Shown: piece by piece, positions 5,035 through 54,234 of the stretch
How positions within the stretch are numbered: position 1 is the stretch's first letter
Layout: the number at the start of each line of letters is the position of its first letter
DNA from: Candidatus Woesearchaeota archaeon
Lineage (GTDB): Archaea; Nanobdellota; Nanobdellia; Pacearchaeales; GW2011-AR1
Length of the DNA stretch: 58,967 bases
Direction of reading: 5' to 3'
NCBI GenBank assembly: GCA_964574775.1
Contig: CAZNOS010000001.1
Coordinates: 1-58,967, forward strand
Notes under the pieces: generated by a model
What the model was told of the DNA's origin: nothing
The model's input: only the letters and a program-made list of their open reading frames with translations
Databases searched by the model: none
Position numbers and translations under genes: made by a program

Positions 5035-5706
5035 TTAAGGAGCAGCAGGAGTTGAAGCAGGAGTAGGAGTTGGAGCAGGAGTTAGAGTTGATGGATGTGC
5101 AATTTTACAATCTTGCTCAGAAAGATAAACTTCGCTAGAAGCCCTACAAACAGCTACCTTCTCTGTCGAACCTGCATATTTAACGCAAGCAGTACCATCC
5201 GTATTAAAGCACCAGCTTTCTAATCCCAAAATATCTCTCACTAAAATAAGGTTTTTCTTAGTACAATCTTTACCATTAATCAAAATACTATAACTAGAAG
5301 AACCAGAATTCTCATTTATTGCTAATTGACATCTCTCTACCCAAGTGGTTTCTGGACACTTTATTGCCGCTTCATTATAATTCTCTATGCTTGCAACAGA
5401 AGTCTTTATTGTAGAATTAAGATACTCGCAATTAACCAACTGTTTACTAAGACCAAAAAAACTCTTTTTTTCTATAGTCTTAAAATCATTACAAAACTTT
5501 TTTTGCAAATCAACTGGACCGACAGACAAATCAGTACTACATCCACCAGCAGCAGCGACAACTACGGCATCATTTGCGCCCAGTGCAGCACCAGCAGTTC
5601 CAAGTACTCCTTTATAAAAACCGACAACAAGAAGTCCGATAATAATAACAACGACAAATACAATTATAAAATTCATCAAAGCATCGCCCTTTTTATTCAT
5701 CACCAT
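5035..5706 (-). CDS. Prepilin-like (class III signal-like) Cys-rich secreted protein, cluster member A
   Basis: N-terminus MVMNKKGDALMNFIIVFVVVIIIGLLVV. 11 Cys in the ectodomain. Pro/Thr-rich C-terminal tail TLTPAPTPTPASTPAAP. Confidence 0.7.
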   Translation of the reverse strand: MVMNKKGDALMNFIIVFVVVIIIGLLVVGFYKGVLGTAGAALGANDAVVVAAAGGCSTDLSVGPVDLQKKFCNDFKTIEKKSFFGLSKQLVNCEYLNSTIKTSVASIENYNEAAIKCPETTWVERCQLAINENSGSSSYSILINGKDCTKKNLILVRDILGLESWCFNTDGTACVKYAGSTEKVAVCRASSEVYLSEQDCKIAHPSTLTPAPTPTPASTPAAP

Positions 5707-5754
5707 TAGAATACTAAAAAGAAATCTATTTATAAATCTTTCTTTGATTCACTA

Positions 5755-6714
5755 CTAACTACTAATAATCATAGTTTCAGCACCAGATGGACAAAACGCC
5801 AAATTTGTCGAGGATTTTCCCTCTTCGAAATAATTAAACGCCAAACTAAATTCTAGCTTTTTCATTTCCTTATTAATATAATATCTATCCTTACTCGTTA
5901 ATTTCGCTAAAATACTAACTGGTTTCGCATATCCACTAAGGCTACTAACGACATTAACATTACTACCCGTATCACCAGAAACATATGTTGGTGGCGTAGG
6001 CTGGGCAGAAATCGAACTAAATCCTTGCAAAGCAACATCTTCAAAACTCACATCAAAATCAGAAAATTTATTTTCAAAACATATTTTCGCAGCGTCCGAA
6101 CTCGAAGATCTTAGACACTCGCAATAAATTCCGACGATATCATCTAAACTCAACAACCCCAACATTTGAAAACTTACATCAGCATTTATCATAGAAGAAT
6201 AATTAACTCGCAATAACACATTCCCATCAGAGTCAACTCTACTAATATTAGTACGCCAGTTTTCAGCTCTCACTCTCGCACTCTTCCCATCAAAACTATA
6301 AACCGCATTATTACCACGGAAAAAATCTCCTACCGCACCAACTCTTTGCATATCTTCGCCATCAAAACTAAACAATACACCATCACCAAAATTCTCCACT
6401 TTCGTACCCGTTACTTTCTCCCTAAATATCTCATTCAAATTCACATTATCGTGCCCAATTTTTTCAGAATAATCCTTCAAGACAACCTGATAGTTATTCA
6501 AAAAAGATTCTACCAAAATAAAATATAAACTATTTTCTAAACTACTCTCATTTGCATAAACCCTACCATACCAGAGAGCATCATCAAAATTTCCAGAAAC
6601 CTTCAATGATCCCATCGAAAGAATAGACAGTATTCCCGTAAATAAAAACAAAACTCCCAACACCATTATCGCGATACTTACAGAACCCTTTTTATTTTTA
6701 GAAAAACTAAGCAT
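5755..6714 (-). CDS. Prepilin-like protein, cluster member B
   Basis: N-terminus MLSFSKNKKGSVSIAIMVLGVLFLFTG. Overlaps the upstream gene by 8 nt. Confidence 0.7.
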   Translation of the reverse strand: MLSFSKNKKGSVSIAIMVLGVLFLFTGILSILSMGSLKVSGNFDDALWYGRVYANESSLENSLYFILVESFLNNYQVVLKDYSEKIGHDNVNLNEIFREKVTGTKVENFGDGVLFSFDGEDMQRVGAVGDFFRGNNAVYSFDGKSARVRAENWRTNISRVDSDGNVLLRVNYSSMINADVSFQMLGLLSLDDIVGIYCECLRSSSSDAAKICFENKFSDFDVSFEDVALQGFSSISAQPTPPTYVSGDTGSNVNVVSSLSGYAKPVSILAKLTSKDRYYINKEMKKLEFSLAFNYFEEGKSSTNLAFCPSGAETMIISS

Positions 6715-7207
6715 TTTTACACTCCCTCACCAAAACACCCACGTTAGAATATTCCTGTTTTTTTGTTGGCAAATAAAACGAACTCACGTCATCCCACACT
6801 CCACAACCCGCTACATCTTTTGAATCCGGTTGAGGTCTTACCACCACTCTTATCTGACCTATCACCAAACCGAAATAATCATAACTAATCATTTTAATAA
6901 ACTCGTCTACGGATTTTCCGAACGCAGCCTCTCCCTTATAACTACTATAAACATTCCCCAATAATTCGCCCTTCTCAGAACTAGAAAAATCACTCATCAA
7001 AAGCGCAGCACCAATTCTCTGATTCGCAAGAGAATTATGAAAACTATACTCTCCACTAGACAAAACAATCTCGATATCCGCTTTTTTTCCAAGTCCACCA
7101 AGATTGTAAGCCAATATTACAACAATCACCAAAACAAAAATTAATATTAATCCAGCCGCCCAACTAAAAACCTCTCCCGCTCCTTTTTTATTTATTTTTT
7201 TAAACAT
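6707..7207 (-). CDS. Prepilin-like protein, cluster member C
   Basis: N-terminus MFKKINKKGAGEVFSWAAGLILIFVLVIVVIL. ATG at 7207 shares one nt with the TGA of the upstream gene. Confidence 0.7.
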   Translation of the reverse strand: MFKKINKKGAGEVFSWAAGLILIFVLVIVVILAYNLGGLGKKADIEIVLSSGEYSFHNSLANQRIGAALLMSDFSSSEKGELLGNVYSSYKGEAAFGKSVDEFIKMISYDYFGLVIGQIRVVVRPQPDSKDVAGCGVWDDVSSFYLPTKKQEYSNVGVLVRECKNA

Positions 7208-7731
7208 CAAACAACACTCCTTTTACCAATATTATCTGACACAACTAAAACCACAACACTAACTCTTTCTATATTTCCCTCTTTATTTATAAAAAGATAA
7301 CTCTCATTTCTATATAGACAGCCATGTGTGTCGAAAGATTTTTTGTTTCTATTTACATCACAATCACTCTGATACAAAGAATTTCCAGCCGACAAAGAAT
7401 TTCTTACACGAAAACCAGTACCATTAAAAAAACTAATATTAAACCAAAAATAATCCCCTCTAGCGTCGTCACTAGCCGGATCTAAAATATCTTTATTTAA
7501 ATGACAATACGAATACACATTAAAATCATCTGCAAAAACATCGTTCACGATATATCCGTTCTCTGTTATACATTCCATAAAATTCGTATAAAGAATTTCA
7601 GTCTCTAAAGGCCGCACGTCCACCGGACTATTAATATATTGAGCAACTAAAACAATAACTCCCGCACCAATTAAAAGTAAATACAATATAAATATCACAG
7701 ACATTATCTTCTCACTTCCACGTTTGTTCAT
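7207..7731 (-). CDS. Prepilin-like protein, cluster member D
   Basis: N-terminus MNKRGSEKIMSVIFILYLLLIGAGVIVLV. ATGA overlap with the upstream gene. Confidence 0.7.
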   Translation of the reverse strand: MNKRGSEKIMSVIFILYLLLIGAGVIVLVAQYINSPVDVRPLETEILYTNFMECITENGYIVNDVFADDFNVYSYCHLNKDILDPASDDARGDYFWFNISFFNGTGFRVRNSLSAGNSLYQSDCDVNRNKKSFDTHGCLYRNESYLFINKEGNIERVSVVVLVVSDNIGKRSVV

Positions 7732-8171
7732 TCTTTCACCTCTATTTTTATTGTAACTCTTCCATTGTTGCCCAGATTCGGAGGAGAAAAAAGAATGTTA
7801 TAATTGGAAAAATAGCAATATGTATAACCGCCCGTCTTAGAACCCAAAGAAACAAAAATACAAGGCTCATCCTTAACTTTCGAAAAACTTTCACCCTTCG
7901 CCCTCACAACATCTCTCTTCTCTTTTAGCGCTATATTATATGCATCCGTAACATCTAACGTAATATCCGTACCTGGCCTCGCTCCGTCAATAATCAACGC
8001 AATTTTTTTTGCATAAATTTCCTCATTAATAGATGCCCCACCTATAGAATTTTTAGCAAAGACTAAAAGAATAAAGGCAAAAACTAAAAATAAAATCAAA
8101 TAAGTAATCTCCGGCCAAGCAATAGCATTTGCAGAACCCCTCTTGTTTTCTTTAAAATCCAAAATCACCAT
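7728..8171 (-). CDS. Prepilin-like protein, cluster member E
   Basis: Start set at the internal ATG (MVILDFKENKRGSANAIAWPEITYLILFLVFAFILLVF). The ORF-track start at 8213 is probably an over-extension. Confidence 0.65.
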   Translation of the reverse strand: MVILDFKENKRGSANAIAWPEITYLILFLVFAFILLVFAKNSIGGASINEEIYAKKIALIIDGARPGTDITLDVTDAYNIALKEKRDVVRAKGESFSKVKDEPCIFVSLGSKTGGYTYCYFSNYNILFSPPNLGNNGRVTIKIEVKE

Positions 8172-8217
8172 ACGAAACAAACCACTTTTAACATTATAAA
8201 TCTTGCCAAACAATCAA

Positions 8218-9270
8218 CTAAACGTTCTGGAATTCCTGTATGCCGTATTTTTCAAATCCATCTTTACTATAATCAGTTAATACCAATCCCCCAACCGCCA
8301 CAGAATCCTTTAGCGGACCCGAAACAAAAAATCCTTGCAACCAATCTCCAAAATCTCCAACAACACTAAGAACCGAATAACCAAGTCCAACACCAGCTAT
8401 ATTTCCTGCGCTACCTCCTCCAGCAAGAACCAATACTCCCTTTCCAAGAATAGAGGACGCCCCAGGAACAAAAATACAAACAGCCGCTATAGCAGCACCT
8501 GCTGTTGTGCCAGCAATAACCTTTCCTAGATTTGTATTTGTAGTTTCAATATAAGTTATAGCTTTAACTCCAGTCAGATTCAAGAAATCACTATTTTTCA
8601 AATCGGCACTTGTCTCAATCGGAACAAGAGATCCATACAACTGAGCAGCCGAATCTCCCTCGGGAGTATTTCTAAGATAATCCATATAACTATAATTTTG
8701 AGTCGGAACCTTATGCGTCGTCATATACTGAACTAATCCTGTAATATTTTTTATATCATCAGATGGATCATCCTTATCTTTACCAAAAAGAATACTATCA
8801 TCAAATTCTATCTTATCACATATAATTCCTTTAGAAACATCCGCATCTGTAATTTTCCATGCCCTAGAAAAAATCTGCAACTTACCCTCTCCAAACATAT
8901 TCCAACAATCAGCCATTTCTCTAGCTAAAAACATTCTTATCTGTTCTTTCTGTTCAATAACAGTCGTGGCCGACAACCTTTGTGTTTCATATGTTTTCCC
9001 GATACCTGTACAATTCCCCTTACCGGAAGCCTTAGTCGTAAGACAAATCACTCTAGACTTACACCGAACAGAAACAAGATCTTTCGCAGGAACATCTCCA
9101 CCAGGAAGTATTGCCTTAAGCAAAATTGATTCTTTACATGCCGCTCTATCTATAGTTTGTTGAAATGGGAAAAAAACAAAGATAAGCACGAAAACAGCTA
9201 ACGTAATAACTGCCAAAATTATACTGACAACAAACCAGTTTACATCTCCTCTTTTATTAAAAATAAACAT
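8218..9270 (-). CDS. Prepilin-like protein, cluster member F, with Gly-rich hydrophobic C-terminal region
   Basis: ATG at 9270 gives MFIFNKRGDVNWFVVSIILAVITLAVFVLIF. C-terminal segment AGTTAGAAIAAVCIFVPGASSILGKGVLVLAGGGSAGNIAGVGLG. Confidence 0.7.
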   Translation of the reverse strand: MFIFNKRGDVNWFVVSIILAVITLAVFVLIFVFFPFQQTIDRAACKESILLKAILPGGDVPAKDLVSVRCKSRVICLTTKASGKGNCTGIGKTYETQRLSATTVIEQKEQIRMFLAREMADCWNMFGEGKLQIFSRAWKITDADVSKGIICDKIEFDDSILFGKDKDDPSDDIKNITGLVQYMTTHKVPTQNYSYMDYLRNTPEGDSAAQLYGSLVPIETSADLKNSDFLNLTGVKAITYIETTNTNLGKVIAGTTAGAAIAAVCIFVPGASSILGKGVLVLAGGGSAGNIAGVGLGYSVLSVVGDFGDWLQGFFVSGPLKDSVAVGGLVLTDYSKDGFEKYGIQEFQNV

Positions 9271-9303
9271 AATCAAAATACAAAAACCTTCTTTTTATAT
9301 TTA

Positions 9304-9417
9304 ACTAAGAAAGATTCGTCAGAAACTTAATTACGTAAACAACTGCCAATATTAAAATTCCAATTAGAATCGCTATTGAAATATCCTCAACCGTATTACT
9401 GCCCGTATCATCTGCCA
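9304..9417 (-). CDS. Small (37 aa) single-TM protein inside the prepilin-like operon (absent from the ORF track)
   Basis: Hand translation gives MADDTGSNTVEDISIAILIGILILAVVYVIKFLTNLS*. It fills the gap between members H and F on the same strand. Confidence 0.45.
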
Positions 9418-9463
9418 TAAAAAAATAACTTAAACCACATTAATAAATGTTATTAGAAATCAC

Positions 9464-10732
9464 TCAACATGTATGTTCAAAATTTTTAGAAAAAATGAGA
9501 TTACCAGACAAATCTACAACATCAATTTTTATTATTCTCTTCTGACCATCACTACCATGTGAACAAATGAACTCACTTACGCCCAAAAAGTTTAAAGCTG
9601 GACTGGTTCTAAAAATAGCACGATTTAACGTAGTCAATTGTTTATTATTAGAATCATAAATAGACGTCTTCGCATTAAATTCCACATCACCACAAGATTC
9701 CTCAAAAGAAACGACATAAGATAATGGAGCAGTCTCTGTAATATCCGATATTTTACAATCAGAAATTTCATTAATCTCTAAACCACTCGAATCAAAAACA
9801 TTCGATACCCCATTCTGAAAAGAAGCATACTCCCAAATAAAACCATATTTTATTTTATATTTTCCAGAAACAATCTTATCCTTCGGATAAACACATGAAA
9901 GATTTAAAACTCCACCTGAAACATAGTTCATACTAATCTTTTTTTCATACTTTATACCTAAATTAGAAAATCTACAAGAAACACCCTGCACTACGAAATC
10001 ATCATCACGCAATAAGTCAAAAATTACCACCTTTAAAAGAGAAAAATCACAATTACTAAACCGACTCGTTATATTAACACGGATATCATCCCCTATTATC
10101 TCAGAAGCAGCACGAACATCCTCCAAACTACATCCCGCATTTTGAGAATAAGTTTTATACGCTAAATCATTAAGATACATAAAATAATTATCATTCGTCT
10201 TTCTTACAAAAACACTTCTTGGAACCGGACTCACATGAATAAAACACATATCCGCTAAAATAACAGTTTCAAATATTTTCGGATTATAACGTGCAGGAAA
10301 CCATTCTTTATACCAAACTCTATCTCCCTCATCTAATGCCTCCCAAATCTCCTCAGATAAACTAAGACACGGCGTCCCATCGTGATCATAATCAATTGGC
10401 CTGTCCAAATCTACACAAGCCTGATTATCCGCACAACTCATCTCCTTAAAATTGGCTGGAGAACATAAGCAAAATTTCTTTTCATCAAACATGAACACCC
10501 AATCTTTTGGACTTTCAATAACAAACTCCTTAATTTCGTCAGTCTTCATTTCGGAAAATCCGTCGGATAAAACACGCAACGTTCCCTTAGCCTGCTCAAC
10601 TTGTAAATTCGTAGTAACCATTTTTATAAGAGCAACAAACAGCAATCCAATTACAATCAAAACACCTATTGCTAAAACAGTTTTCACTATTTCCTCAGTC
10701 GTAATATCTCCTCTCTTGTTCCCAAAACTCAT
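9464..10732 (-). CDS. Prepilin-like Cys-rich protein, cluster member H (first gene of the 8-gene unit)
   Basis: N-terminus MSFGNKRGDITTEEIVKTVLAIGVLIVIGLLFVALI. Multiple Cys (FCLCSPANFKEMSCADNQACVDLD...). Confidence 0.7.
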   Translation of the reverse strand: MSFGNKRGDITTEEIVKTVLAIGVLIVIGLLFVALIKMVTTNLQVEQAKGTLRVLSDGFSEMKTDEIKEFVIESPKDWVFMFDEKKFCLCSPANFKEMSCADNQACVDLDRPIDYDHDGTPCLSLSEEIWEALDEGDRVWYKEWFPARYNPKIFETVILADMCFIHVSPVPRSVFVRKTNDNYFMYLNDLAYKTYSQNAGCSLEDVRAASEIIGDDIRVNITSRFSNCDFSLLKVVIFDLLRDDDFVVQGVSCRFSNLGIKYEKKISMNYVSGGVLNLSCVYPKDKIVSGKYKIKYGFIWEYASFQNGVSNVFDSSGLEINEISDCKISDITETAPLSYVVSFEESCGDVEFNAKTSIYDSNNKQLTTLNRAIFRTSPALNFLGVSEFICSHGSDGQKRIIKIDVVDLSGNLIFSKNFEHTC

Positions 10733-10814
10733 ATTAATTAAAAAAAATCATTCTTAATAAACATTACCAATCAATCGCCATAATATTTAAATAAAAAAGA
10801 CGGCATAAAAAATA

Positions 10815-12083
10815 ATGTCATTGGAAAAAATCTTGAAGACTGGAAGAAATCTGCTTATGGCCACCTTTTTGTCTGCCTCACTGACGAGCTTATCCCCAGC
10901 ACAAAATCCACCAGAAGAAGCCATGATACCCATTCCCGTAGATCAGTCTCTTTCGTGGTTCCGTCCAATTAACGGAGTTTTAACTTGCAAAAATAAAAGC
11001 AACACAACTTCACCATCAGCACAATTTGCCTCTCAATATACCGTTACAAATACATTTTATCTAACTGGAAAAACGACAGAAGATGGTTGTTTAAACGTAG
11101 GTTTTTTTAGCGCAGACCCAAGAAAAAAACCAGAAAAAACACACTACAGAATAGATTATGCGAATTCCAAACTCTACATAATGTGTTCACCAAACCTATC
11201 AATTGATTCTAATACACAATATGCAGAAGAACTCACGCTAACCGATAAACTTGCATCCACCAAACTAGTTCCAAAAGAAGAAGCCAAGGGATTTTGGATT
11301 CGGGCAGAACAAAGGGTTTTAGAAACATTAGAAAATTACGATCCAAGCAGAAAATTTTTAGAAGTATACACATTAGGAACAGCAACCGATTATTGCTTTT
11401 CCGAATTAATAAAAAATCACGCCATTGCCATGAACACCACCGTAGGAGAAAGAATGAAAAATGAAATAGACGATAGAAATGCAATAGGCACGATTCAAAT
11501 TCCTTTTCATTCTAAAGAAAAAAATGTTTTATTTCGCAACGAATTTGGAAGAAAGTTTAGAATATTCTTAGGTGCTCAAAATCCAACCACACCAGTCCGA
11601 GTTTTATATCATATAGAAACAGAATTTGACGACGGAACATCTAGTGCAAGAGGAACGCTCGAAGCTTTCACGGAAGAATTTCCAGCATTCACAATACCGA
11701 AAGAAAATCCTCCATCAGAACAAAAACCGTCAACACAAAAATGGCCAACAGGAATTTGGATAAAAGAACCACGAACGGACAAAACAGTAACTCCGGAAAA
11801 ACTCGAATCGCAAGAACTATATCAAGCCGGTTATTGTATAGATAACGACGGGAATCTATATCAAATATATTCATCTAGAAGATTTCCCGCATTCACAGAA
11901 ACAAGACAAGATGGAACCATCGCCGTATATCATAAAGACGTATCTAACGGAGTAAAAATCACAGAAAGAAATAATAGTTCGCTAGAAATACTTAGGCCAC
12001 TAAACGTAGACACAATGGAACAAACAACTACTGACACATCTACAGGAACAACAATAAGAAGAAACATATTCAAAAGAAAATAA
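10815..12083 (+). CDS. Secreted hypothetical protein on the opposite strand, splitting the prepilin-like cluster
   Basis: Signal-like N-terminus LLMATFLSASLTSLSPAQNPPEE. Its composition differs from the neighbouring genes (more Pro/Arg/Thr). Confidence 0.65.
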   Translation: MSLEKILKTGRNLLMATFLSASLTSLSPAQNPPEEAMIPIPVDQSLSWFRPINGVLTCKNKSNTTSPSAQFASQYTVTNTFYLTGKTTEDGCLNVGFFSADPRKKPEKTHYRIDYANSKLYIMCSPNLSIDSNTQYAEELTLTDKLASTKLVPKEEAKGFWIRAEQRVLETLENYDPSRKFLEVYTLGTATDYCFSELIKNHAIAMNTTVGERMKNEIDDRNAIGTIQIPFHSKEKNVLFRNEFGRKFRIFLGAQNPTTPVRVLYHIETEFDDGTSSARGTLEAFTEEFPAFTIPKENPPSEQKPSTQKWPTGIWIKEPRTDKTVTPEKLESQELYQAGYCIDNDGNLYQIYSSRRFPAFTETRQDGTIAVYHKDVSNGVKITERNNSSLEILRPLNVDTMEQTTTDTSTGTTIRRNIFKRK

Positions 12084-12088
12084 TTAAA

Positions 12089-12853
12089 TTATTTCGTAGA
12101 AATTTTTAATGCACTTGCTAATTTTGCATAATTATCCACCAATAGGTTGGTTTGTATATTTGCCTGTAAATCATCATTTATATACAAAACTGGATTTTGA
12201 AATCTCTTTAATAAAATTAAATCTGGCGTATTATAGCTCCTAGAATTATCTGGGCCCTGACCACCAACCCAAGTAGTATCGCAAGGTAAAGAAACTTGTT
12301 GGTTTGCATCTAGCGTCGTTTTGGATAAGAAATATTTTCCAACATCATCTGGAGAATAAGCAAAATAAACAACGCCATTTAAAGAAATGGCTCCAACAAT
12401 TACATCCTTAGGGAACCAAAAAGAAGTCTCTTTTAGGTATAGCACAATATGATTTTTATATTTCTTTAAATATATCGCATTCTCATAACCATTTCCCCAA
12501 AAACTTGCATCCACCTTACACAGCCTTAAGCTCAATATAGCATTCTCAAAAATATACACTGACTCCGTATTTGCACCCTTAGTGGTATTAACTATTATAT
12601 AATTAAATACGGGTGGAGCGATTTGCCCACTATCACCAACCACATCCGCCAACTCATCACTTCCCTCTATAACTCCATAGGATTGATTTGCCTCCCCTTT
12701 CATATCGGGCAAAATATTTTGTAACATCGTTTTAAATTGAGTCGGAAAAATAATAAAATAAACAGCCATAGCAATAATCGCCACGCTAATTACTAGGGCC
12801 ACGACAGTGCCCGCCGTCATATCTCCTTTTTTATTTTGAACAATCTTTCTCAT
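12089..12853 (-). CDS. Prepilin-like protein, cluster member I
   Basis: Start set at the internal ATG 12853 (MRKIVQNKKGDMTAGTVVALVISVAIIAMAVYFIIF). The TAAAATG junction links it to the small upstream ORF 12855..13013. Confidence 0.7.
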   Translation of the reverse strand: MRKIVQNKKGDMTAGTVVALVISVAIIAMAVYFIIFPTQFKTMLQNILPDMKGEANQSYGVIEGSDELADVVGDSGQIAPPVFNYIIVNTTKGANTESVYIFENAILSLRLCKVDASFWGNGYENAIYLKKYKNHIVLYLKETSFWFPKDVIVGAISLNGVVYFAYSPDDVGKYFLSKTTLDANQQVSLPCDTTWVGGQGPDNSRSYNTPDLILLKRFQNPVLYINDDLQANIQTNLLVDNYAKLASALKISTK

Positions 12854-12854
12854 T

Positions 12855-13013
12855 TTACGAACCAAACCTAAACCAGTCAAAGAAACTATGCAACCACCCC
12901 GTTGCCTGTTCTTTAAAAAAAAGTAACATAACCACGCCAACCCCAACTAAAGCTATAATGGCCAAAATAAGTCCTTGTACAAAATCAAATTCCGAACCTC
13001 TCTTATTCACCAT
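12855..13013 (-). CDS. Small (52 aa) prepilin-like protein, cluster member J (absent from the ORF track)
   Basis: Hand translation gives MVNKRGSEFDFVQGLILAIIALVGVGVVMLLFFKEQATGWLHSFFDWFRFGS*. Same N-K-R-G-S plus helix motif as the other members. Its stop lies 1 nt before the ATG of member I. Confidence 0.55.
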   Translation of the reverse strand: MVNKRGSEFDFVQGLILAIIALVGVGVVMLLFFKEQATGWLHSFFDWFRFGS

Positions 13014-34300: not shown

Positions 34301-36646
34301 AAAAACAGTAGTCTCCGCATTTGAATCGCAATAACTTCTCCATACGTCCATAACTTCTTGTCTAGCAAGAGATTCTCCAGAATAACCCGCTAATAAATTC
34401 TTTACATTCAATGCGAGATTTGTAATATAGCAAACTCCCTTTAATCCCTTTATCACTTCAGCTAAATTAGCCAACTTCTTTTCCATTTTAGCAATAGTTT
34501 TATTTAACTCTGCAGCTTTTTCTGAAGACTTATTTGGATTTAATTTTATAGTCCTTTGTTCAATTCCAATCTTATAACTAAAATTAGATGCAGTAGTTGT
34601 CTTTTGAGTATTTGTAATTAATTCCACTTTAACGACAGTTGGAACTTCAATATCATCAACCTCTAATTTATAGGGCTTAGTATTTATCGTCTCTTCCTTA
34701 ATTTCGTCTAGTCTGATAGTAGAAGGTCTCTGTCTAACCCAACCATTAATGTTATTAGTATTCGTATAAACAAAAATACTAACCTCCACACGACTAGAAT
34801 ATATTTTATCAACAACGAGCTTTTCCGAATCCTTCTGTAGTTCTATTTCTTGCCCCTCGCCAAAAACACCCCTATATTTTTCATCAACATAAAATCCTGC
34901 TTTTTTAGACTCTCTATCTGCCGCCCTAAACTTTCTCAATGTTATGGAATATGTTTTTCCATTTATCTCAAAATTTTTCATTGTATTTGAAGTGTCATAA
35001 TTTTTTTCCGAAGACAATTGTGCCTGTATCAATGAAGCGTAATCCGAATCTGGAAAATTATCTACAAAACTTTGCATCAATAATATTTTTACGGCGCTCT
35101 CGGTAACAAGATTAATTTGTTCGAGAGATGCAAGCTCGCTAAATCTATTCAAATCTCCACGAACCTCTTTATAATCAGCCAATAACTCATCAACTGCCTC
35201 GTCGGCATTGTCTAAATCACTAACAACCGCTGCATTAACTTCATTGGATTCGCTAGCACTATCTTTTCCAACCAAACTATTAAGTTTAATTTCTCCAAGA
35301 TTAGAATTAATCGGGGAATCTTTCTCATTTAAAATAATCATACTTTCACCAAGCTTAAATCCAGAAAGAGAAATATCTTTAATTTTTACAATACTATTGT
35401 CACCCATCCCAATAGCAGTTTCATCAATATTAGAAATCTTTTTCGCCAACTCAGAATATACAGTCGACTTCATTTCTTTTTCAGAACCAAGTAAAACAAC
35501 CAAACTTTCTTTACTCCCCTCTTTTCCAACATAACCAGAATAAGCCAACTTCCAAGTCAATGATTTTCCAGGAGTAATATTTCCAACGAAAACCCTCTCG
35601 CTAATATTATATAATTTAGAAGCAAAGCCCACAGAAATATTCGCAGGATATCCCCCAACGACACTTAATTCAATTTTCCCCGCACCCTGACAACTCAAGG
35701 TTACTTTTCCAGAGCTATCTGTGTATAAATTCACATCAGAAACAGTGCATCTACCGTCAAGAATTTTCGAATCCTTTCTAACCCAAATTTCACTACCATC
35801 AACGTTTAACAATGCACTATCTTCAGTAGAAGTCATTTGTGAAAGCTTTAATTTAAAACTTGCCTTACAATAATATCCTGGAAAATAAACAGTTGGACTA
35901 GTCTCGCCCTCTTTTAATATATGCTCGTCAATTAACTCACCATTCTGAGAATAAACACCAATCCTAGCTTGCGTAGAGTCAACATCTAACAAACGCAAAT
36001 AACCCTTACCATTCCAAAAGGTTGCCATTCCCATCTGAGAATCAGCGCCAGAAAAATCACTTCCCTCTAAATAAAGCACCGCATCTCCGACGCCATAAGC
36101 AGATTCTGCATCAAAACTAATTCTAGCAGTCAAATTACCGCTAATATATTTAGACATATTATTTTCATTTGGATTTCTTTTTAAGATAATTACAACATAA
36201 CCAACATTATTGTATAACGGATCTCCCAATAAAGTATTATAACTTCTAAGTCCCGCTCTTGCCGGATAAAAACTAACTCCAGAAACCTCGCTAGGCATTT
36301 TTCCACTAAAACTAACTGTTTTAATCGCAGAAATTTTAATCAATGGATTTACTCTTACAGAAGACAATTTACAAAAAACTGGAACATTTTTTTCAGCAAG
36401 CAAGTCACTTCTAACTGCCATAGGTTCACATCCTCCTGGTGGAATCATTAAAACTATATCTGTAGACTCGGCGCAATTACTTTCATCAAATGCGGTTTCT
36501 AATCCAGACCAATATGTGGAAGCAGAAGAGCCATAAATACTATTTACAGAAGGATTTGAATACTGAACACCATTTACGGAATTATAAAATTGCGCAGACG
36601 CAAAACCAATAAAAAATAAAATAAAAATGAATAAAACTTTTTTCAT
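31364..36646 (-). CDS. Giant (1760 aa) secreted protein of unknown function
   Basis: Signal peptide MKKVLFIFILFFIGFASAQ. Cys-dense block (ECQDFMSPEDCALMFNVCDPVMCPTSRCDLGG...) and Thr-rich linker STSTETPVTTATTTTDK. No C-terminal anchor. ATGA overlap with the upstream gene. Confidence 0.8.
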   Translation of the reverse strand: MKKVLFIFILFFIGFASAQFYNSVNGVQYSNPSVNSIYGSSASTYWSGLETAFDESNCAESTDIVLMIPPGGCEPMAVRSDLLAEKNVPVFCKLSSVRVNPLIKISAIKTVSFSGKMPSEVSGVSFYPARAGLRSYNTLLGDPLYNNVGYVVIILKRNPNENNMSKYISGNLTARISFDAESAYGVGDAVLYLEGSDFSGADSQMGMATFWNGKGYLRLLDVDSTQARIGVYSQNGELIDEHILKEGETSPTVYFPGYYCKASFKLKLSQMTSTEDSALLNVDGSEIWVRKDSKILDGRCTVSDVNLYTDSSGKVTLSCQGAGKIELSVVGGYPANISVGFASKLYNISERVFVGNITPGKSLTWKLAYSGYVGKEGSKESLVVLLGSEKEMKSTVYSELAKKISNIDETAIGMGDNSIVKIKDISLSGFKLGESMIILNEKDSPINSNLGEIKLNSLVGKDSASESNEVNAAVVSDLDNADEAVDELLADYKEVRGDLNRFSELASLEQINLVTESAVKILLMQSFVDNFPDSDYASLIQAQLSSEKNYDTSNTMKNFEINGKTYSITLRKFRAADRESKKAGFYVDEKYRGVFGEGQEIELQKDSEKLVVDKIYSSRVEVSIFVYTNTNNINGWVRQRPSTIRLDEIKEETINTKPYKLEVDDIEVPTVVKVELITNTQKTTTASNFSYKIGIEQRTIKLNPNKSSEKAAELNKTIAKMEKKLANLAEVIKGLKGVCYITNLALNVKNLLAGYSGESLARQEVMDVWRSYCDSNAETTVFGVKETRDVCYNRMGANISKDVDAYTNAVKAVNDKIGTEKNITKFVASLGGGTITDINMSTTTATLPISSLNSWESVRAYLLYENIKSSGASSKLINKIKVDRDAALIPIVNAANAQSQSGTTSGGANVNLWENKETKELVWGGDKVGDSGVGSVANVATGTAVYLTRYNTINYLLILSEENSGQRSVSSVYERNTNSWIELADGDIKKTLSNARFVSSGNCKNKNLNPTVNYYDSGSAKGLAAATPFDADLGWYVKVSASQGGLLSSESKGYSDSGSVNTFSVCNVGQDGRQTPDDACTTINVNSVGETTNLVSVAGCKMSSNERTRLILDAQEALRQAGRQYSSKGKIIIKISGRADIEAERGTPTGEGGPIEECQDFMSPEDCALMFNVCDPVMCPTSRCDLGGKYPVSNVIQSGVIGSLVLCLPNFKLFGGDVYIPVCLTGVHAGLDAYLSILKAQRDCLQANADNGEYIGMCDYMTAVYKCNLFWNQIQPAISNFLPNIFSLVTGTQKAGGGEYMTFQKSWNNMEASLDYFKNTYGANSFTQFKFGNTQQFGTEVCNSFVGTSFPTSAEALDSLLAPESPYQFYAEFQEIPHTDATVPPTSQYKVFAHIYAGNDTGVSYSIYLKNPPDSSYYTGIPYINVETGYVTKGQQKQVSKDFTAPEGYKELCVSINGQEECGFGKVTTDFAVNALTNSYVQSQVSQTQITTEKECQQGSSSVIGFTSINPQAAVENVVDPRIDLQGIVRICSTVNPGDGTSKSSRWKSVGTCGDANMVCWLDTESVSAATSQIWNISEDMNQAENSLEILNGASGTLTEDASQELAVKINNDIHALTNDGVKAGAHLPILSNITTLQDRGFSNVYQAKGVYLRYKLYETIVRLKNGKGTLLSAVNMPSTSTETPVTTATTTTDKTLGDLVSGNILEKDGVKYSVVSSTTASGGVVITIKQSGQTATQTIPVGSASTKLSEKGYTFVSDK

Positions 36647-38472
36647 TGTTCTAACCCCACGGATAAAACCGAATCTTCAAACTTAATATAGTTTTCATTT
36701 ATATCTTCAATTTTTTGCGGCAAAGAAAAGATAGGAACATTAATTGCTATCGTTCCACCTTGACTTAGAGAATAATCGTCGAAAAATTCAACCGACTTTC
36801 CACCACCATTTAAAACTTGATCTATAGTCTGAGAAGGCATTTCAGTTGTAAAACATTTTGTTTCTACTTCGCCAGTAAGTGCACCAAACCCAGTCGCTGG
36901 AACTTCAAAACATCTGCTTTCAGTTCTTGCTGGGAAAGTTAAACTAGAATTTCTAAAAACCTGTACACTGACATTATAGACGCCCTCTACCAACTCTATC
37001 TTTCTCTCTGCAGGATACATAACACTTCTTGAAAAATCATCAGAAGTAAACTGAACGATTGCATTTCCAGAAACACTTCCTAAATTAAGACCCAGAGTAT
37101 AAACTTTTTTAACCAAAACATCCGCAGAGCTTTCTTGGCTTGAAGAAACGACATATCTACCAGAAGAATAATTTTCCGCTCTCGCCTCTATATATCCATT
37201 GATACAAACCGGAATTTTAGTTTGCAATGGACCAGATTTTGTTTCGCCCAAATAACATCTTTCTCCAAGACAACTATAACTCAGAGTTGCAGCAACTGGA
37301 TTTCCATTCAAATCAGAAACACCGATTTTCATATCATGATTTCTATTCTTACAAATTACCTCTTCCTCGCCAACGAATTCACCAATATTAGTAGAATTCC
37401 TAACTTGGTTTCTTTCAATCATAACAATAACTGGAAATTGAAAAAACTCCTCATCGTCATGAACCTGTATCAAAACTGGAAACATAAGATCATAAATAAG
37501 TTGATATTCAACGAAACAAAAACCAAGCGCATTCATTCCGGGCTGCAAACCAACTGGTTCGACAACATCGTCGCCATATATCTCAATTTTTGTAGGCCAA
37601 TCAGAAAAGTAAACAAAATCCACGCTCTCATCTGTCTTCATATCATCAACTACAAAATAATCATCCGAATTCAAATAGTAATCTCCGCTAATTTTTACAA
37701 ATTGAATATTTTCCACTAAAGCATCAGAAATGTTTTGTCTAATATTAGCAAAATTGAAAACCTTTGGAACACAACCCTCTTCAAATCCAACCGTCGGTGC
37801 ATTCAAGGTTAAAGTATCAAGCGCATAATTATCTAAAAATTTAACTCTTGATTGTGTGTCATATATTCCCTGGGCCAAATCATAAAATTTACCAATCTTA
37901 GAAGCAACAGAAATTTTGTGTTCGCTCACAACAGCGCTAGTATTGTCTTCAGAAAAGAAATAAACATTATTGTCTAAAACCACCTCTACGGAATTATCCT
38001 TAATCTCGACCTCTACATTACCAGAATCTACGTCGATAAAAATGCCGTCATCATTAAAATTTTTAAAATTACAATCTCTCATTGACTCAGAAATAAATCT
38101 TTCTAATTCAGAAACCATCTGTGATTTTGTCGGGATCTGTTCCTTTACTACATTATTTCCAGAAACATAAAACCAATAAGGAACACCAGCACCGCCGAAA
38201 TCTAACTGAGAAGAAGATGGCGCATAAATACTACCGGATTCAAATGGTAGCTCTTCCGTGTATATATAACCACCCTGCTCTCCCAATAATTTGATTCCAG
38301 ATTTTACTCTTTCAGTGATACAGGATTTATATGCATCTTCTGCGGATTGAAAATTTTTAGAAACTGTTCCAGTAAAACCACCCCTAAAAACATAATATAA
38401 AACTATTCCAGCAACCAAAATTATACCTAACACAATAAAGATAGTTACCTGTCCTTTTTTACTAATCACCAT
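36643..38472 (-). CDS. Prepilin-like (class III signal-like) 609-aa protein, translationally coupled to the giant protein
   Basis: N-terminus MVISKKGQVTIFIVLGIILVAGIVLYYVF. Its stop overlaps the start of 31364..36646 (36643-36646). Confidence 0.75.
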   Translation of the reverse strand: MVISKKGQVTIFIVLGIILVAGIVLYYVFRGGFTGTVSKNFQSAEDAYKSCITERVKSGIKLLGEQGGYIYTEELPFESGSIYAPSSSQLDFGGAGVPYWFYVSGNNVVKEQIPTKSQMVSELERFISESMRDCNFKNFNDDGIFIDVDSGNVEVEIKDNSVEVVLDNNVYFFSEDNTSAVVSEHKISVASKIGKFYDLAQGIYDTQSRVKFLDNYALDTLTLNAPTVGFEEGCVPKVFNFANIRQNISDALVENIQFVKISGDYYLNSDDYFVVDDMKTDESVDFVYFSDWPTKIEIYGDDVVEPVGLQPGMNALGFCFVEYQLIYDLMFPVLIQVHDDEEFFQFPVIVMIERNQVRNSTNIGEFVGEEEVICKNRNHDMKIGVSDLNGNPVAATLSYSCLGERCYLGETKSGPLQTKIPVCINGYIEARAENYSSGRYVVSSSQESSADVLVKKVYTLGLNLGSVSGNAIVQFTSDDFSRSVMYPAERKIELVEGVYNVSVQVFRNSSLTFPARTESRCFEVPATGFGALTGEVETKCFTTEMPSQTIDQVLNGGGKSVEFFDDYSLSQGGTIAINVPIFSLPQKIEDINENYIKFEDSVLSVGLEQ

Positions 38473-50413: not shown

Positions 50414-51784
50414 ATGCTAGAAAAACTATCCGAAACGCTAACAAAAGGAATTAAAAAAATATCCAGTGCGATATTTGTAGACAAGAAACTAATAGACGAA
50501 GTCATAAAAGATCTTCAAAGATCACTTATCGAAGCAGATGTTAATGTAGAATTAGTTTTCCAACTCTCCCAAAAAATTAGAGAAATAGCTATTGACGAAA
50601 ACATTAAAGGAATAGAAAAAAAAGAGCAACTAGTAAAACTCATTCACGACCAAATAGCACTTTTAATTGGAAAAGGAAAAGAATTGAAGATAGAAAAGAA
50701 AACGAAAATTCTTCTTCTGGGTTTATACGGCTCCGGTAAAACCACAACAATCTCAAAGCTCGCATTTTATTACGCCAAAAGAGGAAAAAAAGTTTGTGCG
50801 TTGGGATTAGACACTCAAAGACCTGCCGCTATGACTCAACTAGAAACAATGTGTAAAAAGGCAAACGTTCCGGCTTTCATTGATACTGAAGAAAAAGACC
50901 CTGGAAAAATAATTAAAAAATACGAGAAAGAATTAGAAGATTATGACATCGTTTTCATAGACACGGCCGGCAGAGACGGACTAAATAAAGATTTAATTAC
51001 GGAAATAAAATCAATCGAAAAAAAACTAAAACCGACTTACAGAATTTTAGTTATCCCTGCAGATATTGGTCAAACCGCAAAAACTCAAGCCCAAGAATTT
51101 CAAAAAGCACTTTCTATTGACGGAGTTATTATAACTAGAATGGACGGAACTGCAAAGGCTGGCGGAGCAATAACTGCCTGCGCTGAAACAAACGCCCCGG
51201 TTTTCTTTATTGGAACGGGAGAAAAAATACACGAATTCGAAATTTTTAATCCAACATCTTTTATTTCAAGATTGTTGGGCATGGGCGACTTAGAAGGATT
51301 ACTTGAAAAAGTTCGTTCTGCAGTTGACGAAAAACAACAAGAAAAAATAGAACAAAGACTCAAGGAAGGAAAATTCACACTTCACGACTTATATTCTCAA
51401 CTAGAATCCATGAGTCAAATTGGAAGTTTCGATAAGTTAATGGGAATGATTCCAGGATTTGGAAACGCAGCTGCAAAAGTTCCAAAAGAAGCGATGCAAA
51501 AACAAGAAGAAAAAATGAAACGTTGGAAATATGCAATTCAATCAATGACAAAAGAAGAAGTTGAAAATCCAGAATTATTCGACAAACAAACCTCAAGAAT
51601 CCAGAGAGTCTCAAGAGGATCTGGCACAACAACTTCCGAAATTAGAGAACTTTTGAAACAATACAAAATGATTAATGATTTAATGAAATCTCAATCTTCC
51701 ATGCAAGGATTGCAAGAGGGAAAGATAGACAAAAAAACCATGATGAAAATGGCTAGGCAGTTTAAAGGGAAGATGAAATTTTAA
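50414..51784 (+). CDS. srp54: Signal recognition particle protein SRP54
   Basis: LLGLYGSGKTTTISKLA, FIDTAGR, TRMDGTAKAGGA and a Met-rich M-domain. Confidence 0.95.
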   Translation: MLEKLSETLTKGIKKISSAIFVDKKLIDEVIKDLQRSLIEADVNVELVFQLSQKIREIAIDENIKGIEKKEQLVKLIHDQIALLIGKGKELKIEKKTKILLLGLYGSGKTTTISKLAFYYAKRGKKVCALGLDTQRPAAMTQLETMCKKANVPAFIDTEEKDPGKIIKKYEKELEDYDIVFIDTAGRDGLNKDLITEIKSIEKKLKPTYRILVIPADIGQTAKTQAQEFQKALSIDGVIITRMDGTAKAGGAITACAETNAPVFFIGTGEKIHEFEIFNPTSFISRLLGMGDLEGLLEKVRSAVDEKQQEKIEQRLKEGKFTLHDLYSQLESMSQIGSFDKLMGMIPGFGNAAAKVPKEAMQKQEEKMKRWKYAIQSMTKEEVENPELFDKQTSRIQRVSRGSGTTTSEIRELLKQYKMINDLMKSQSSMQGLQEGKIDKKTMMKMARQFKGKMKF

Positions 51785-51883
51785 AAAAATTCTACTTAAT
51801 TACTCATGGCATTTAACTAAACCAATAAATCCATCTTCCAAACCATTACATATCTTTAAAAAATAGAATTTGATTAAATCCAA

Positions 51884-52390
51884 ATGGTAGACGTTTCATC
51901 CGCACTAACAACAACTATGATAGGTATGCTTGGAGTAGTATTTGGAGCTATTTTGAGCAACTACGTAAACAGCAGAATCGCTTCTAAAAATTCCAGAAGA
52001 GAAATAATATTCAGAAAAAAAATGGACTATTTCGAAAGCATCGTACAGTGCATAGAAAAAAACACAAAATTATATCTTCAATCAATTAGAGAATTCGAAA
52101 AAAACCAAAACGCCAAAGTAGCTCACAAAATTGTCAAAAAACTAAAATCCAACAGGGGTAAATTCGATGCAAAAACTAGCCCAATCTATCTCGACACTAG
52201 ACTATTCTCGAAAGACATAAAGAATTTCGTCAATCTAGAAAAAACAATTTTCCTCGCATTCGAAAATCTCTCAAAATCAAATTCAGACAAAGAATATATC
52301 ATAAAAAGCCTAAAAACAAACATGAATTCCTTAACTCAATTAGGCAACAAAATAATCTCTAAAATGAGACTAGATATAATAAAAAAATAA
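51884..52390 (+). CDS. Membrane-anchored hypothetical protein
   Basis: N-terminal TM TTTMIGMLGVVFGAILSNYV followed by a helical K-rich body. Confidence 0.55.
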   Translation: MVDVSSALTTTMIGMLGVVFGAILSNYVNSRIASKNSRREIIFRKKMDYFESIVQCIEKNTKLYLQSIREFEKNQNAKVAHKIVKKLKSNRGKFDAKTSPIYLDTRLFSKDIKNFVNLEKTIFLAFENLSKSNSDKEYIIKSLKTNMNSLTQLGNKIISKMRLDIIKK

Positions 52391-52404
52391 AATCGCTTAT
52401 ATAT

Positions 52405-53510
52405 TTACCCAAAATTATTCCTCATCATATCTCTATCCATCGAGTAACTAACAGCAGTAGTTGCAGAAATTTTTCCCGCTCTATATAACGTCATTAAAGA
52501 ACTATCCATCTGAACCATTCCCTCAGTTGAACCAGACTGAATAGTAGACGGAATTTGAGACAATTTCCCAGTTCTGATTAAATTTTTTATTCCTGAAGTA
52601 TTTCTCATAATTTCCATCGCCAACACACGTCCGCCCTTAACGCCGGGAACCAACTGCTGACACACGATATATTCTAAATTATCAGCCAACGCTCCCCTAA
52701 CGTAATTTCCATCATTACCAGAAACAAAATCCAAACAACGAGTAATAGTCCCAGCCGAATCTTTAGTGTGCAAAGTTGAAAAAACTAAATGTCCAGTATC
52801 CGCCGCATTTACAACACCTTGCAACGTCTCGGAATCTCTCGTCTCTCCAACAACAATTACGTTCGGATCCTGTCTCATCGCCTGAGAAACTCCCTCTGAA
52901 AAACCTCTTATGTCTCTATATAATTCTCTCTATATAATTCTCTCTGTATAACGCTTGCCTTAATTCCATTGTGAACATATTCAATCGGATCTTCTAATGT
53001 AATAATTTTCCTAGCATAATTTCTATTTATATGCTGTATCAACGAAGCTAACGTAGTTGATTTTCCAGAACCAGTTACTCCAGTCACAAGAACCAAACCT
53101 CTTTGTAAAGAAACGATTTGCTTCCATATCTCATTTGGAAATCCTATTTCACTAATTTCCCTAATTCTATTTGGAATTACTCTTGCCGTAAAAAACGGTC
53201 CGTTCTTCGCGCTAGCGACATTAACTCTAAAATTTCTACCATTGTGCTCATAAGCAAAATCAACCGCAAAAGCCTGTTTATATCTGTCTTTTTGTTCGTC
53301 CGTCAGAATAGCGTTTACCATCCCCTCAACACGTTCCCTACTCAAAACATCACTATCCTCGGCTGACCCAAGTTGCCCATCAATTCTAAAAAGAGGATGT
53401 GCACCAGATTGAACATGTAAATCAGTCGCAAATCCGCCCTCAGTAGTCGCACTCAACAATTCCCTAAACTGGTCCAGATAATCATTTTGCTCTGCCATCC
53501 TAAACACCAT
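52405..53510 (-). pseudogene. pilT: PilT/PilU-family type IV pilus retraction ATPase, frameshifted by a 14-bp tandem duplication
   Basis: N-part carries Walker A LVTGVTGSGKSTT and ITLEDPIEY. C-part carries RQDPNVIVVGETRD, TGHLVFSTLHT and GIKNLIRTGK (AIRNLIRE-type). Removing one 14-bp copy gives a single 364-codon ORF (363 aa plus stop). Confidence 0.85.
52917..52944. repeat. Perfect 14-bp tandem duplication (tatataattctctc x2) at the pilT frameshift
   Basis: 52917-52930 is identical to 52931-52944, flanked by ctc microhomology. Confidence 0.95.
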
Positions 53511-53548
53511 AATTAAACATTTATAAATAAAATTATACTGCAGTATTT

Positions 53549-54193
53549 ATGTCAAAGATAATAGCCCAAGGCGCAGAAGCGATAATAACTTTAGATAAAG
53601 ATATCATAACAAAAAATCGTATTCCAAAATCTTATCGTCTAAAAGAACTCGACGAAAAAATACGAAGAAAGCGAACTGAAAAAGAAACAAAGATTTTGAA
53701 AAAAGCAAAGCTATTTGGAATAAACGTTCCAAACGTCCTTCATGAATTCACCGCACAAAACCAAGTAACAAAAGAATATTCTCTTCACGACCCATATAAA
53801 ATAATAATCGAATACATCGACGGCGACAAACTATCTGATAAACTCAATTCCTACCCCGAAGAAAAACAATTTATGACAATGAAAACACTCGGTCAAGAAG
53901 TTTCAAAACTCCATCAAAACGATATAATTCACGGAGATCTAACGACTTCCAACACAATTTTAAAAGAAGATAAAGTTTTCATCATCGACTTCGGATTAGG
54001 TTTCATCTCAAAAAGAATCGAAGACAAAGCCGTAGATTTACATTTAATAAAACAAGCACTAGAAGCAAAACACTTCCAAAATTTTGAAAAACTTTTTGAA
54101 AACTTCAAAGAAGGATATGGAAATAATCCTGAATCAAAAAAAGTTTTTGAACAACTTAAAAAAGTAGAAGGACGAGGACGTTATAAACATTAA
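53549..54193 (+). CDS. bud32: KEOPS complex kinase Bud32 (Kae1-associated kinase)
   Basis: IAQGAEAIIT, HGDLTTSNTIL, IIDFGLGF, DKAVDLHL. Confidence 0.88.
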   Translation: MSKIIAQGAEAIITLDKDIITKNRIPKSYRLKELDEKIRRKRTEKETKILKKAKLFGINVPNVLHEFTAQNQVTKEYSLHDPYKIIIEYIDGDKLSDKLNSYPEEKQFMTMKTLGQEVSKLHQNDIIHGDLTTSNTILKEDKVFIIDFGLGFISKRIEDKAVDLHLIKQALEAKHFQNFEKLFENFKEGYGNNPESKKVFEQLKKVEGRGRYKH

Positions 54194-54234
54194 TAATTAA
54201 TAACCCACCAAAAATTTTCGCTCTTGAATAATTA

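Follow-up and report, generated by a model that had tools for sequence, protein, structure and literature searches.

Does any archaeon possess a pilus-retraction motor of the bacterial PilT type, and, where the gene for such a motor is found in two pieces, is the break genuine? These questions are raised by the stretch of DNA analyzed here, contig CAZNOS010000001.1 from position 1 to 58,967 (hereafter the window), which carries at 52405-53510, on the minus strand and amid archaeal housekeeping genes, an ATPase gene of the PilT/PilU family that is divided by a 14-bp tandem duplication. An earlier note, made from the sequence of the window alone, had remarked that characterized archaeal type IV filament systems are not known to use a PilT-type retraction ATPase, which statement agrees with a 2018 review reporting that no archaeal PilT homologue had been identified (PMC6098224) and with a 2024 paper on twitching in Sulfolobus, which describes archaea as being without PilT homologues (PMC11178785); a 2026 preprint reclassifying the archaeal machineries of the superfamily of type IV filaments (TFF) recognizes four ATPase arCOGs and leaves PilT unmentioned. 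In the TFF-superfamily phylogeny, furthermore, the PilB/PilT duplication lies inside a bacteria-only clade, and pilT is in bacteria often a loner gene (PMC6668835). Within the open-access literature, supplementary annotation tables aside, we found no paper describing PilT in DPANN or other archaea, the papers retrieved for DPANN lineages dealing only with bacteria of the Candidate Phyla Radiation (CPR). We consider it probable that the motor was acquired anciently from bacteria, was then inherited vertically, and was recently broken in the window by a slipped-strand duplication. The gene and its parts, including the two open reading frames (ORFs), are the following:

52405..53510, minus strand: disrupted PilT/PilU-family ATPase gene (TIGR01420, 349.3 bits; Pfam T2SSE, E=2.9e-45)
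52908..53510, minus strand: N-terminal ORF of 200 amino acids (aa), with the N-terminal domain, the Walker A motif GVTGSGKST and the Asp box ITLEDPIEY, followed by the out-of-frame residues ENYIET and a TAA stop
52405..52878, minus strand: C-terminal ORF of 157 aa from an internal Met start, with the Walker B region (NVIVVGETRD), the His box (TGHLVFSTLHT) and GIKNLIRTGK, which resembles AIRNLIRE
52917..52930: duplication copy 1, TATATAATTCTCTC
52931..52944: duplication copy 2, missing from both orthologues
52913..52945: full period-14 stretch of 33 nt, with the 5-nt TCTCT/AGAGA microhomology
53511..53548: divergent intergenic region of 38 bp between PilT and Bud32, with the A/T-rich, TATA-like TTTATAAATA at 53520-53529

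The identity of the gene was assessed on the protein of 363 aa obtained by deleting one copy of the duplication. This repaired protein reaches 349.3 bits against TIGR01420—the NCBIfam model of the PilT/PilU family of type 4a pilus ATPases—over model positions 3-341 of 343, the curated cutoff being 319.1, and it matches Pfam T2SSE as well; whereas the other NCBIfam models remain far under their cutoffs (TraJ 157/368, DotB 151/463, GspE 132/630, PilB 118/676, and ComGA likewise), as does the FlaI model NF058587, with 55.8 bits against a cutoff of 550. The comparison with proteins of known structure gave the following ranking:

P. aeruginosa PilT (3JVU/3JVV): 258 bits, the best PDB match
Thermus PilT2 (5FL3): 252 bits
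Aquifex PilT (2EWV): 239 bits
Geobacter PilT4 (6OJX): 212-223 bits
PilU (P. aeruginosa, 9N32): 173 bits
DotB: 128 bits
GspE/PilB: 88-106 bits
archaeal FlaI: 40 bits, over the P-loop region only

Archaeoglobus GspE2 followed with 38 bits, likewise restricted to the P-loop region. The two ORFs are accordingly the halves of one PilT/PilU-family ATPase, as the earlier note had read them. The alignment to the bacterial PilTs, with scores from 258 down to 212 bits, is collinear and full-length over ~340 residues of a protein of ~360 aa, and the set of motifs is the same: GVTGSGKST, ITLEDPIEY, NVIVVGETRD and TGHLVFSTLHT align to the catalytic motifs of the P. aeruginosa, Thermus and Aquifex PilTs, nearly all of those positions being invariant in the alignment of the clade described below. 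We take ITLEDPIEY to be the Asp box and RQDPNVIVVGETRD, which the earlier note had so named, to be instead an atypical Walker B region. What sets the window protein apart from bacterial PilT is a Val in place of the usual Pro in the Walker A motif, the form GIKNLIRT in the AIRNLIRE region, the frameshift of this copy, and an archaeal host with prepilin-like proteins bearing class III-like signal peptides. The AIRNLIRE motif reportedly distinguishes PilT from PilU, a finding attributed to Aukema et al. in 2005, and is lacking in PilU. Among the clade members AIxNLIREGK and AIKNLIRSDQ are common forms, the NLIR core being kept in most members while the flanks vary, and the window reads GIKNLIRT(GK). 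PilU, the PilT-dependent accessory retraction ATPase, shares the TIGR01420 family and the fold with the window protein; yet it scores 173 bits as against 258, falls outside the 98%-supported group of the tree presented below, and differs by the AIRNLIRE-like motif of the window protein.

An AlphaFold2 model of the intact orthologue from a sister species (P0001; pLDDT 80.8, pTM 0.73) pointed in the same direction, the top 30 Foldseek matches being all PilT or PilU chains with TM values of 0.7-0.83 over ~350 columns. The predicted architecture is that of the bacterial PilTs (TM ~0.8), with an N-terminal PAS-like domain and a RecA-like C-terminal domain in ~350 aa, and with none of the N-terminal extension of the PilB/GspE type. 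With the archaeal filament ATPases—FlaI/ArlI, AapE and the PilB-like proteins of arCOG01817-01819 and arCOG05609, which would be the ATPases expected beside archaeal pilins—the window protein shares the T2SSE superfamily; in contrast to a member, however, it matches them with only 40-56 bits and over the P-loop core. Its sequence places the locus among the true secretion ATPase genes of the PilT subfamily, outside the archaeal FlaI and PilB-like clades. By analogy with that subfamily, whose bacterial members are hexameric motors for the disassembly of type IV pili, the intact protein may act as a hexamer that depolymerizes pili in retraction and twitching, for which function the purifying selection documented below (dN/dS 0.125) is the one indirect indication.

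At the break, TATATAATTCTCTC occupies both 52917-52930 and 52931-52944 without a single difference, so that the perfect 14-bp tandem duplication described from the sequence alone holds true. The period-14 register extends over the 33 nt from 52913 to 52945, with the pentamer TCTCT (AGAGA on the coding strand) before, between and after the copies, and Tandem Repeats Finder reports the site with period 14 and a score of 71. The two minus-strand ORFs, 52908-53510 and 52405-52878, abut this repeat. Deletion of one copy shortens the gene from 1106 to 1092 nt and restores an open frame of 363 aa with the junction QRELYRDIRGFSEGVSQAMRQDPNV, with which the sister species, reading QRELYRDVRSFSEGVSQAMRQDPNV there, agrees; and in a DNA alignment with two orthologues the 14 nt are an insertion unique to the window. 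An exhaustive scan of the window for perfect tandem duplications with periods of 12-30 returned two, namely the PilT site and an in-frame 30-bp repeat at 4626, as against 0.017 such duplications per window expected in first-order Markov simulations. The 14-bp duplication thus exceeds chance. The spacing of the two AGAGA pentamers corresponds to the codons of the conserved peptide QRELYRD and is present, unduplicated, in the sister orthologue. Replication slippage between these pentamers, 14 nt apart, probably generated the second copy.

The consequence for the reading frame is a shift of +2 after Arg194 and a stop six codons on, between the Asp box and Walker B in the RecA-like core; the split moreover omits 12 residues, D195-A206, from a part of the clade alignment where conservation is strong. 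In place of the intact ORF proper to the PilT/PilU family, the window copy therefore offers one of 200 and one of 157 aa. The frameshift and the early stop in the ATPase core would be expected to abolish function, and we regard this copy as a probable pseudogene of a PilT/PilU-family member. The orthologues start (MAE...) at the position of the Met at 53498, which is probably the true start of this copy, and 53511-53548 may be a possible archaeal promoter shared with the divergent kinase gene.

Could the gene still function, either as an ATPase in two pieces or through translational frameshifting across the duplication? Both ORFs are intact, the ATG of the second is preceded by a purine-rich stretch, and the divergent promoter region is undamaged, which features would be in keeping with such a survival. 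The break, however, removes D195-A206 from the RecA-like core, and all 18 of the full-length clade members aligned are single polypeptides. Programmed frameshifting was rejected, in that the codons before and at the stop, ATA GAG ACA TAA, hold no known slippery or otherwise shift-prone motif. We accordingly rate continued function as very unlikely.

A different possibility was that the duplication arose in assembly or sequencing, in which circumstance the real gene would have one copy and be intact. The window does come from a metagenome assembly, and the comparisons that follow were made at the level of assemblies. The 200-aa fragment is on record with an identical product from the National Center for Biotechnology Information (NCBI) and from Logan, which latter assembles runs of the Sequence Read Archive independently: a Logan contig of SRR12261225 is 100% identical to window positions 51670-54263, duplication included. 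In addition, an E127D variant of the fragment occurs in SRR12261224 and in a 9.6-kb contig of the Joint Genome Institute (JGI; 3300059473), both of them split into 200 + 157 aa; over 1382 bp the Logan contig of SRR12261224 agrees with the window, the extra 14 bp among them, except at one single nucleotide polymorphism (53130 C>A, the E127D change). Three assemblies from different pipelines, drawing on two runs, hence agree exactly, and the duplication stands on two haplotypes, one of them marked by its own polymorphism. A k-mer assembler, furthermore, should be unable to create the extra copy since no 31-mer recurs within the periodic stretch of 33 nt; and a perfect 14-bp duplication, whose chance frequency was given above, is atypical of short- or long-read error.

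In the same JGI contig we observed that the essential gene for SRP54, which is intact in the window with 456 aa, is called as two pieces of 214 and 199 aa (genes 7112-7756 and 7883-8482), which split could reflect faulty assembly, a run of N, or a further lesion. Although this hints at errors in that contig, an artefact at the PilT site is extremely improbable: of the four explanations that the earlier note had left standing—recent inactivation, a reversible switch, population heterogeneity and artefact—the last is effectively excluded by the agreement of independent assemblies, and recent inactivation is favored.

The reversible switch deserves consideration on its own account. On this hypothesis the gene would alternate between one copy and two by slipped-strand events, for example as an escape from viruses that depend on the pilus or in passing from attached to free life and back. 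The perfect copies are bracketed by 5-nt microhomology, and the exact removal of one of them would bring back the open frame; outside the duplication the gene shows no damage and keeps all its motifs; the disrupted allele, being found on two haplotypes, has persisted; and the presence of PilT is unstable among relatives, which instability might suggest fluctuating selection. On the other hand, none of the assemblies searched (NCBI, Logan for the two runs, and JGI) contained a one-copy allele of the window strain, so that in those assemblies the two-copy allele was the only one and no repeat-number polymorphism, with ON and OFF alleles side by side, was seen. Among 5.8 billion clusters, moreover, no full-length protein exceeded 79% identity to the repaired one; an intact allele of the window strain has therefore not been assembled anywhere. 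The repeat, besides, has two copies only, and its unit is long in comparison with classical contingency tracts; the AGAGA spacing belongs to the QRELYRD codons, unduplicated in the sister species, and is thus not a specially evolved site; and the relatives exhibit the outright absence of the gene instead of switching. A switch consequently seems unlikely to us, if less so than the two preceding alternatives. We return, then, to a recent inactivation: apart from one lesion the window copy is undamaged, for which reason the event is judged young.

The next question was how long the gene has resided in this lineage, for which the host must be known. The window encodes, among others, FEN1, a tRNA-splicing endonuclease, TrmB, the ribosomal proteins S8e and S3Ae, TFIIB, GINS, SRP54/FtsY and a Bud32/RIO-type kinase; proteins bearing the name Candidatus Pacearchaeota archaeon share 82% identity with its SRP54, the other named matches, at 70-73%, being from Pacearchaeota or Nanoarchaeota. 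These affinities and this gene set, which uphold the archaeal context seen at the outset, identify the host as a DPANN archaeon that is Pacearchaeota-like. The immediate neighbors of the PilT gene are the following:

50414..51784, plus strand: SRP54 gene, conserved flank of the PilT slot
51884..52390, plus strand: 168-aa ORF of no family, the variable part of the slot, where relatives carry different genes
53549..54193, plus strand: Bud32/RIO-type kinase gene, conserved divergent neighbor of PilT

The closest homologue (P0001) is 79% identical, is intact with 358 aa, and adjoins a Bud32-type kinase. This 79% orthologue was located on two contigs (L002 and L090), on the second of which a near-identical intact gene of 358 aa has SRP54 on one side and Bud32 on the other, S15 and a DHH phosphoesterase following further out, exactly as in the window. 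Since that contig is 76-84% identical to the window in DNA, with SRP54 97% and DHH 93% identical, it represents a sister species. At 52% identity a further orthologue (P0007) is found in the order RIO1/Bud32-PilT-SRP54-FtsY on a 47-kb archaeal contig, whose SRP54 is 58% identical to that of the window, and on two other contigs (together L004-6). The repaired window gene compared with its L090 orthologue gives a dN/dS of 0.125 (dS 0.93), the two halves being similar, as against 0.107 for Bud32 and 0.02-0.05 for SRP54, S15 and DHH. PilT is thus under purifying selection in the Pacearchaeota-like lineage.

These data bear directly on the view, which takes up the horizontal acquisition suggested in the earlier note, of a lone gene recently acquired from a bacterium, to which we add the variant that a bacterial fragment was mis-joined into an archaeal contig. 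The composition on which that view drew is real: PilT has 7.4% Arg and 3.3% Lys, whereas Lys exceeds Arg in 16/16 of the other window genes measured; its GC content is 39.5% against 34% for the window, and its GC3, at 0.32, is slightly above the 0.21-0.29 of the annotated window genes; and the family is otherwise bacterial. Yet AGA predominates among the Arg codons, as it does in the host, and the excess of Arg over Lys reads as an amino-acid signature of the family and not as a sign of recent arrival. The synteny, for its part, recurs in three archaeal lineages, to as little as 52% identity, the dN/dS against an archaeal orthologue is low, archaeal genes stand on both sides within single contigs from several datasets, and the best bacterial matches, among the matches listed, are only ~45% identical to the window protein. 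Neither does the lone minus-strand position count as a sign of insertion, because the orientation is conserved in the relatives. A recent transfer or a mis-join is thereby reduced to a most remote likelihood, on a par with the artefact. What the data suggest is that a DPANN ancestor would have acquired the gene long ago and passed it on vertically under purifying selection, the slot between SRP54 and Bud32 being kept. A search of metagenome contigs with the clade-specific DNA pattern for QRELYRD[IV]xxF[SA][ED]GV brought up no contig beyond the already known L090 and L095.

The slot is not always occupied. In L091 and two further contigs (SRP54 88% identical to that of the window) and in the 317-kb contig L100, from an "uncultured archaeon" (SRP54 84%), there is no PilT between SRP54 and Bud32, and tblastn detected no remnants of it there. 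As the PilT-bearing genomes, with SRP54 identities of 97% and 58%, bracket these PilT-less ones at 88% and 84%, ancestral presence with repeated loss is the simplest interpretation. The frequencies are also unequal: SRP54 falls into more than 120 clusters at at least 69% identity, and PilT into seven at at least 50%. The window copy looks like the first step of another such loss, its inactivation, recent in the sampled population, fitting the repeated disappearance of PilT from close relatives. As to the remaining contents of the slot, the window holds the 168-aa ORF (51884-52390) together with PilT, and L090 a nucleoside deoxyribosyltransferase (1780-2181) together with PilT; without PilT, there are a phospholipase D and three small ORFs in L091 (7384-9731), and a single ORF of 113 aa in L100 (11373-11714).

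Relatives of the protein are to be found beyond this subclade. One (P0010) adjoins a tRNA-splicing endonuclease, S17e and Alba on groundwater contigs; another (P0020), Sec61-beta and deoxyhypusine synthase; and a third (P0015), Hjc, in 0.1-µm-filtered groundwater. Two candidates (P0017 and P0019) were not counted as archaeal, their neighbors—DnaJ/GrpE, RNase II, squalene cyclase and DisA—being ambiguous as to domain. With a profile built from 18 members of the clade, ~19 clusters scored at least 519 bits, as against at most 466 and mostly ~400 for bacterial PilTs; and in a library clustered at 50% identity ~6 single-domain representatives scored at least 435 bits, as against a total of 17,179 PilT-like proteins at E<1e-30. 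These ~19 clusters appear to be a small group of PilTs, and the contexts sampled for it point to DPANN archaea from several environments. The top matches of the profile in the 50%-identity library (P0249-P0255 and P0258) had lengths of 708-1024 aa and two PilT-like stretches apiece; they may represent fusions of two PilTs in tandem, or else separate genes merged in calling. The Walker A motif reads GVTGSGK[ST]T in 21/24 of the aligned sequences, whereas the P. aeruginosa, Thermus and Aquifex PilTs have GPTGSGKST; the Val may therefore be a diagnostic signature of the archaeal clade, the bacterial side of this contrast consisting of those three PilTs. A scan of genome contigs with the clade alignment yielded, among the matches listed, bacterial loci only, at no more than 44% identity, which loci then served as references for the tree. 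The JGI pipeline already labels several of the clade proteins "twitching motility protein PilT"; a discussion of an archaeal PilT clade was not found in the open-access literature.

In a neighbor-joining tree (Kimura correction, 200 bootstraps; deep nodes weak) the seven-member Pacearchaeota-type subclade is supported by 100% of the replicates, and a group of 38 members, comprising the archaeal sequences and PilT/PilU-family proteins of the Planctomycetota and Opitutaceae types, by 98%; outside this group fall the PilTs of Pseudomonas, Clostridia and Saccharibacteria, and PilU as well. The transfer is taken to have run from bacteria to archaea because the archaeal PilTs are nested among bacterial sequences. 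Saccharibacteria and other Patescibacteria, which are CPR bacteria with PilT, resemble DPANN archaea as ultrasmall episymbionts with reduced genomes in shared habitats, and their pili reportedly serve host attachment (PMC9894109, PMC11623550); their PilTs do not group with the archaeal clade in this tree, the nearest bacterial relatives of that clade being of the Planctomycetota and Opitutaceae types.

Several of our results weigh against an ancient acquisition followed by a recent loss, or leave parts of it less firm. All putatively archaeal PilTs come together in only 24% of the bootstrap replicates, so that one ancient transfer and several are both compatible with the tree, and we claim neither a single transfer nor a particular donor phylum. 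The assemblies, as distinct from the reads, on which the comparison of alleles was made could conceal a minority one-copy allele; moreover, SRR12261224 and SRR12261225 are consecutive accessions, probably of one project and site, whereby the confirmation extends to the data and the assembler but not to the population. That the split product has lost its function is an assumption, and the ATG of the C-terminal ORF has GAGGGAG ~11 nt upstream, so that both pieces could be made. Finally, no gene for an assembly ATPase of the PilB/FlaI type or for a platform protein occurs in the 59-kb window, and the link to a pilus proceeds by analogy with the family.

Within these bounds, the ancestral role of the gene would have been the retraction of archaeal-type pili, plausibly built from the prepilin-like proteins encoded in the window. 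That DPANN archaea possess a dedicated retraction motor of ancient bacterial origin, maintained by selection, for their archaeal-type pili, for instance in order to pull a tiny cell onto its host, is a reading that we advance tentatively, as having somewhat less than an even chance of being correct. Were it so, the textbook statement that there is no archaeal PilT homologue would be wrong, and the window would illustrate the motor shed, or toggled off, in one population. The Sulfolobus acidocaldarius Aap pili and the Caulobacter Tad pili likewise bear on the retraction of archaeal or archaea-derived pili, and these, unlike the PilT systems, retract without a dedicated retraction ATPase (PMC11178785, PMC6668835).

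At the level of the genes, the DPANN PilT clade, syntenic and under purifying selection in its Pacearchaeota-like subclade, is a testable counter-example to the statements that archaea lack PilT. The broken copy matters less than the clade, inasmuch as pseudogenization is ordinary; it is nonetheless a clean natural example of slipped-strand inactivation, and, together with the relatives devoid of the gene, it suggests that the motor is dispensable and often lost. Bacterial pilT is likewise dispensable, and is frequently lost under selection by phages or by the niche.

The context that the earlier note had pointed out for the gene, many prepilin-like genes in the window, was recovered as nine genes by their N-terminal motif, eight of them in one region:

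5035..12946, minus strand: region with eight prepilin-like genes, whose products have in the N-terminus [KR][KR]G and then ~20 hydrophobic residues
5035-5706, 5755-6714, 6707-7210, 7207-7731, 7728-8213, 8218-9276, 9464-10732 and 12089-12946, minus strand: the eight prepilin-like genes
10815-12083, plus strand: ORF inside that region that is not prepilin-like
36643..38472, minus strand: ninth prepilin-like gene, encoding 609 aa (MVISKKGQVTIFIVLGIILVAG...) and sharing 4 nt with the start of the gene for a 1760-aa protein (31364-36646)

None of the Pfam and NCBIfam models recognizes the nine prepilin-like proteins or the 168-aa neighbor of PilT, and we designate the nine as putative pilins on the strength of that N-terminal motif. 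The 59-kb window contained no prepilin peptidase, and neither it nor the flanks of the orthologues contained bacterial PilB, PilC, PilM/N/O or PilD. The 1760-aa product of the gene adjoining the ninth prepilin-like gene has a signal peptide and no Pfam match; the two genes (31364-38472, minus strand) may constitute an operon for a pilus-associated giant adhesin.

Some minor features of the window were also recorded. The in-frame 30-bp repeat mentioned above (4626-4701) is perfect, with 2.5 copies, and lies in the ORF 4338-4865 (minus strand), whose product of 175 aa combines an N-terminus resembling a signal peptide with a repetitive sequence rich in VSND. A tRNA-Tyr gene of 93 nt (41219-41311, minus strand) probably contains an intron, and the tRNA-splicing endonuclease gene is present in the same window (13084-13605, plus strand). 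A gene for a Fic-domain protein is located at 1253-2488 (plus strand), and another at 2578-3762 of L004, less than 8 kb from PilT. Two ORFs for small membrane proteins of 113 and 126 aa (29322-29663 and 29660-30040, minus strand) overlap by 4 nt, the second having a weak EamA match, which pair is either a half-size transporter pair or a split gene.

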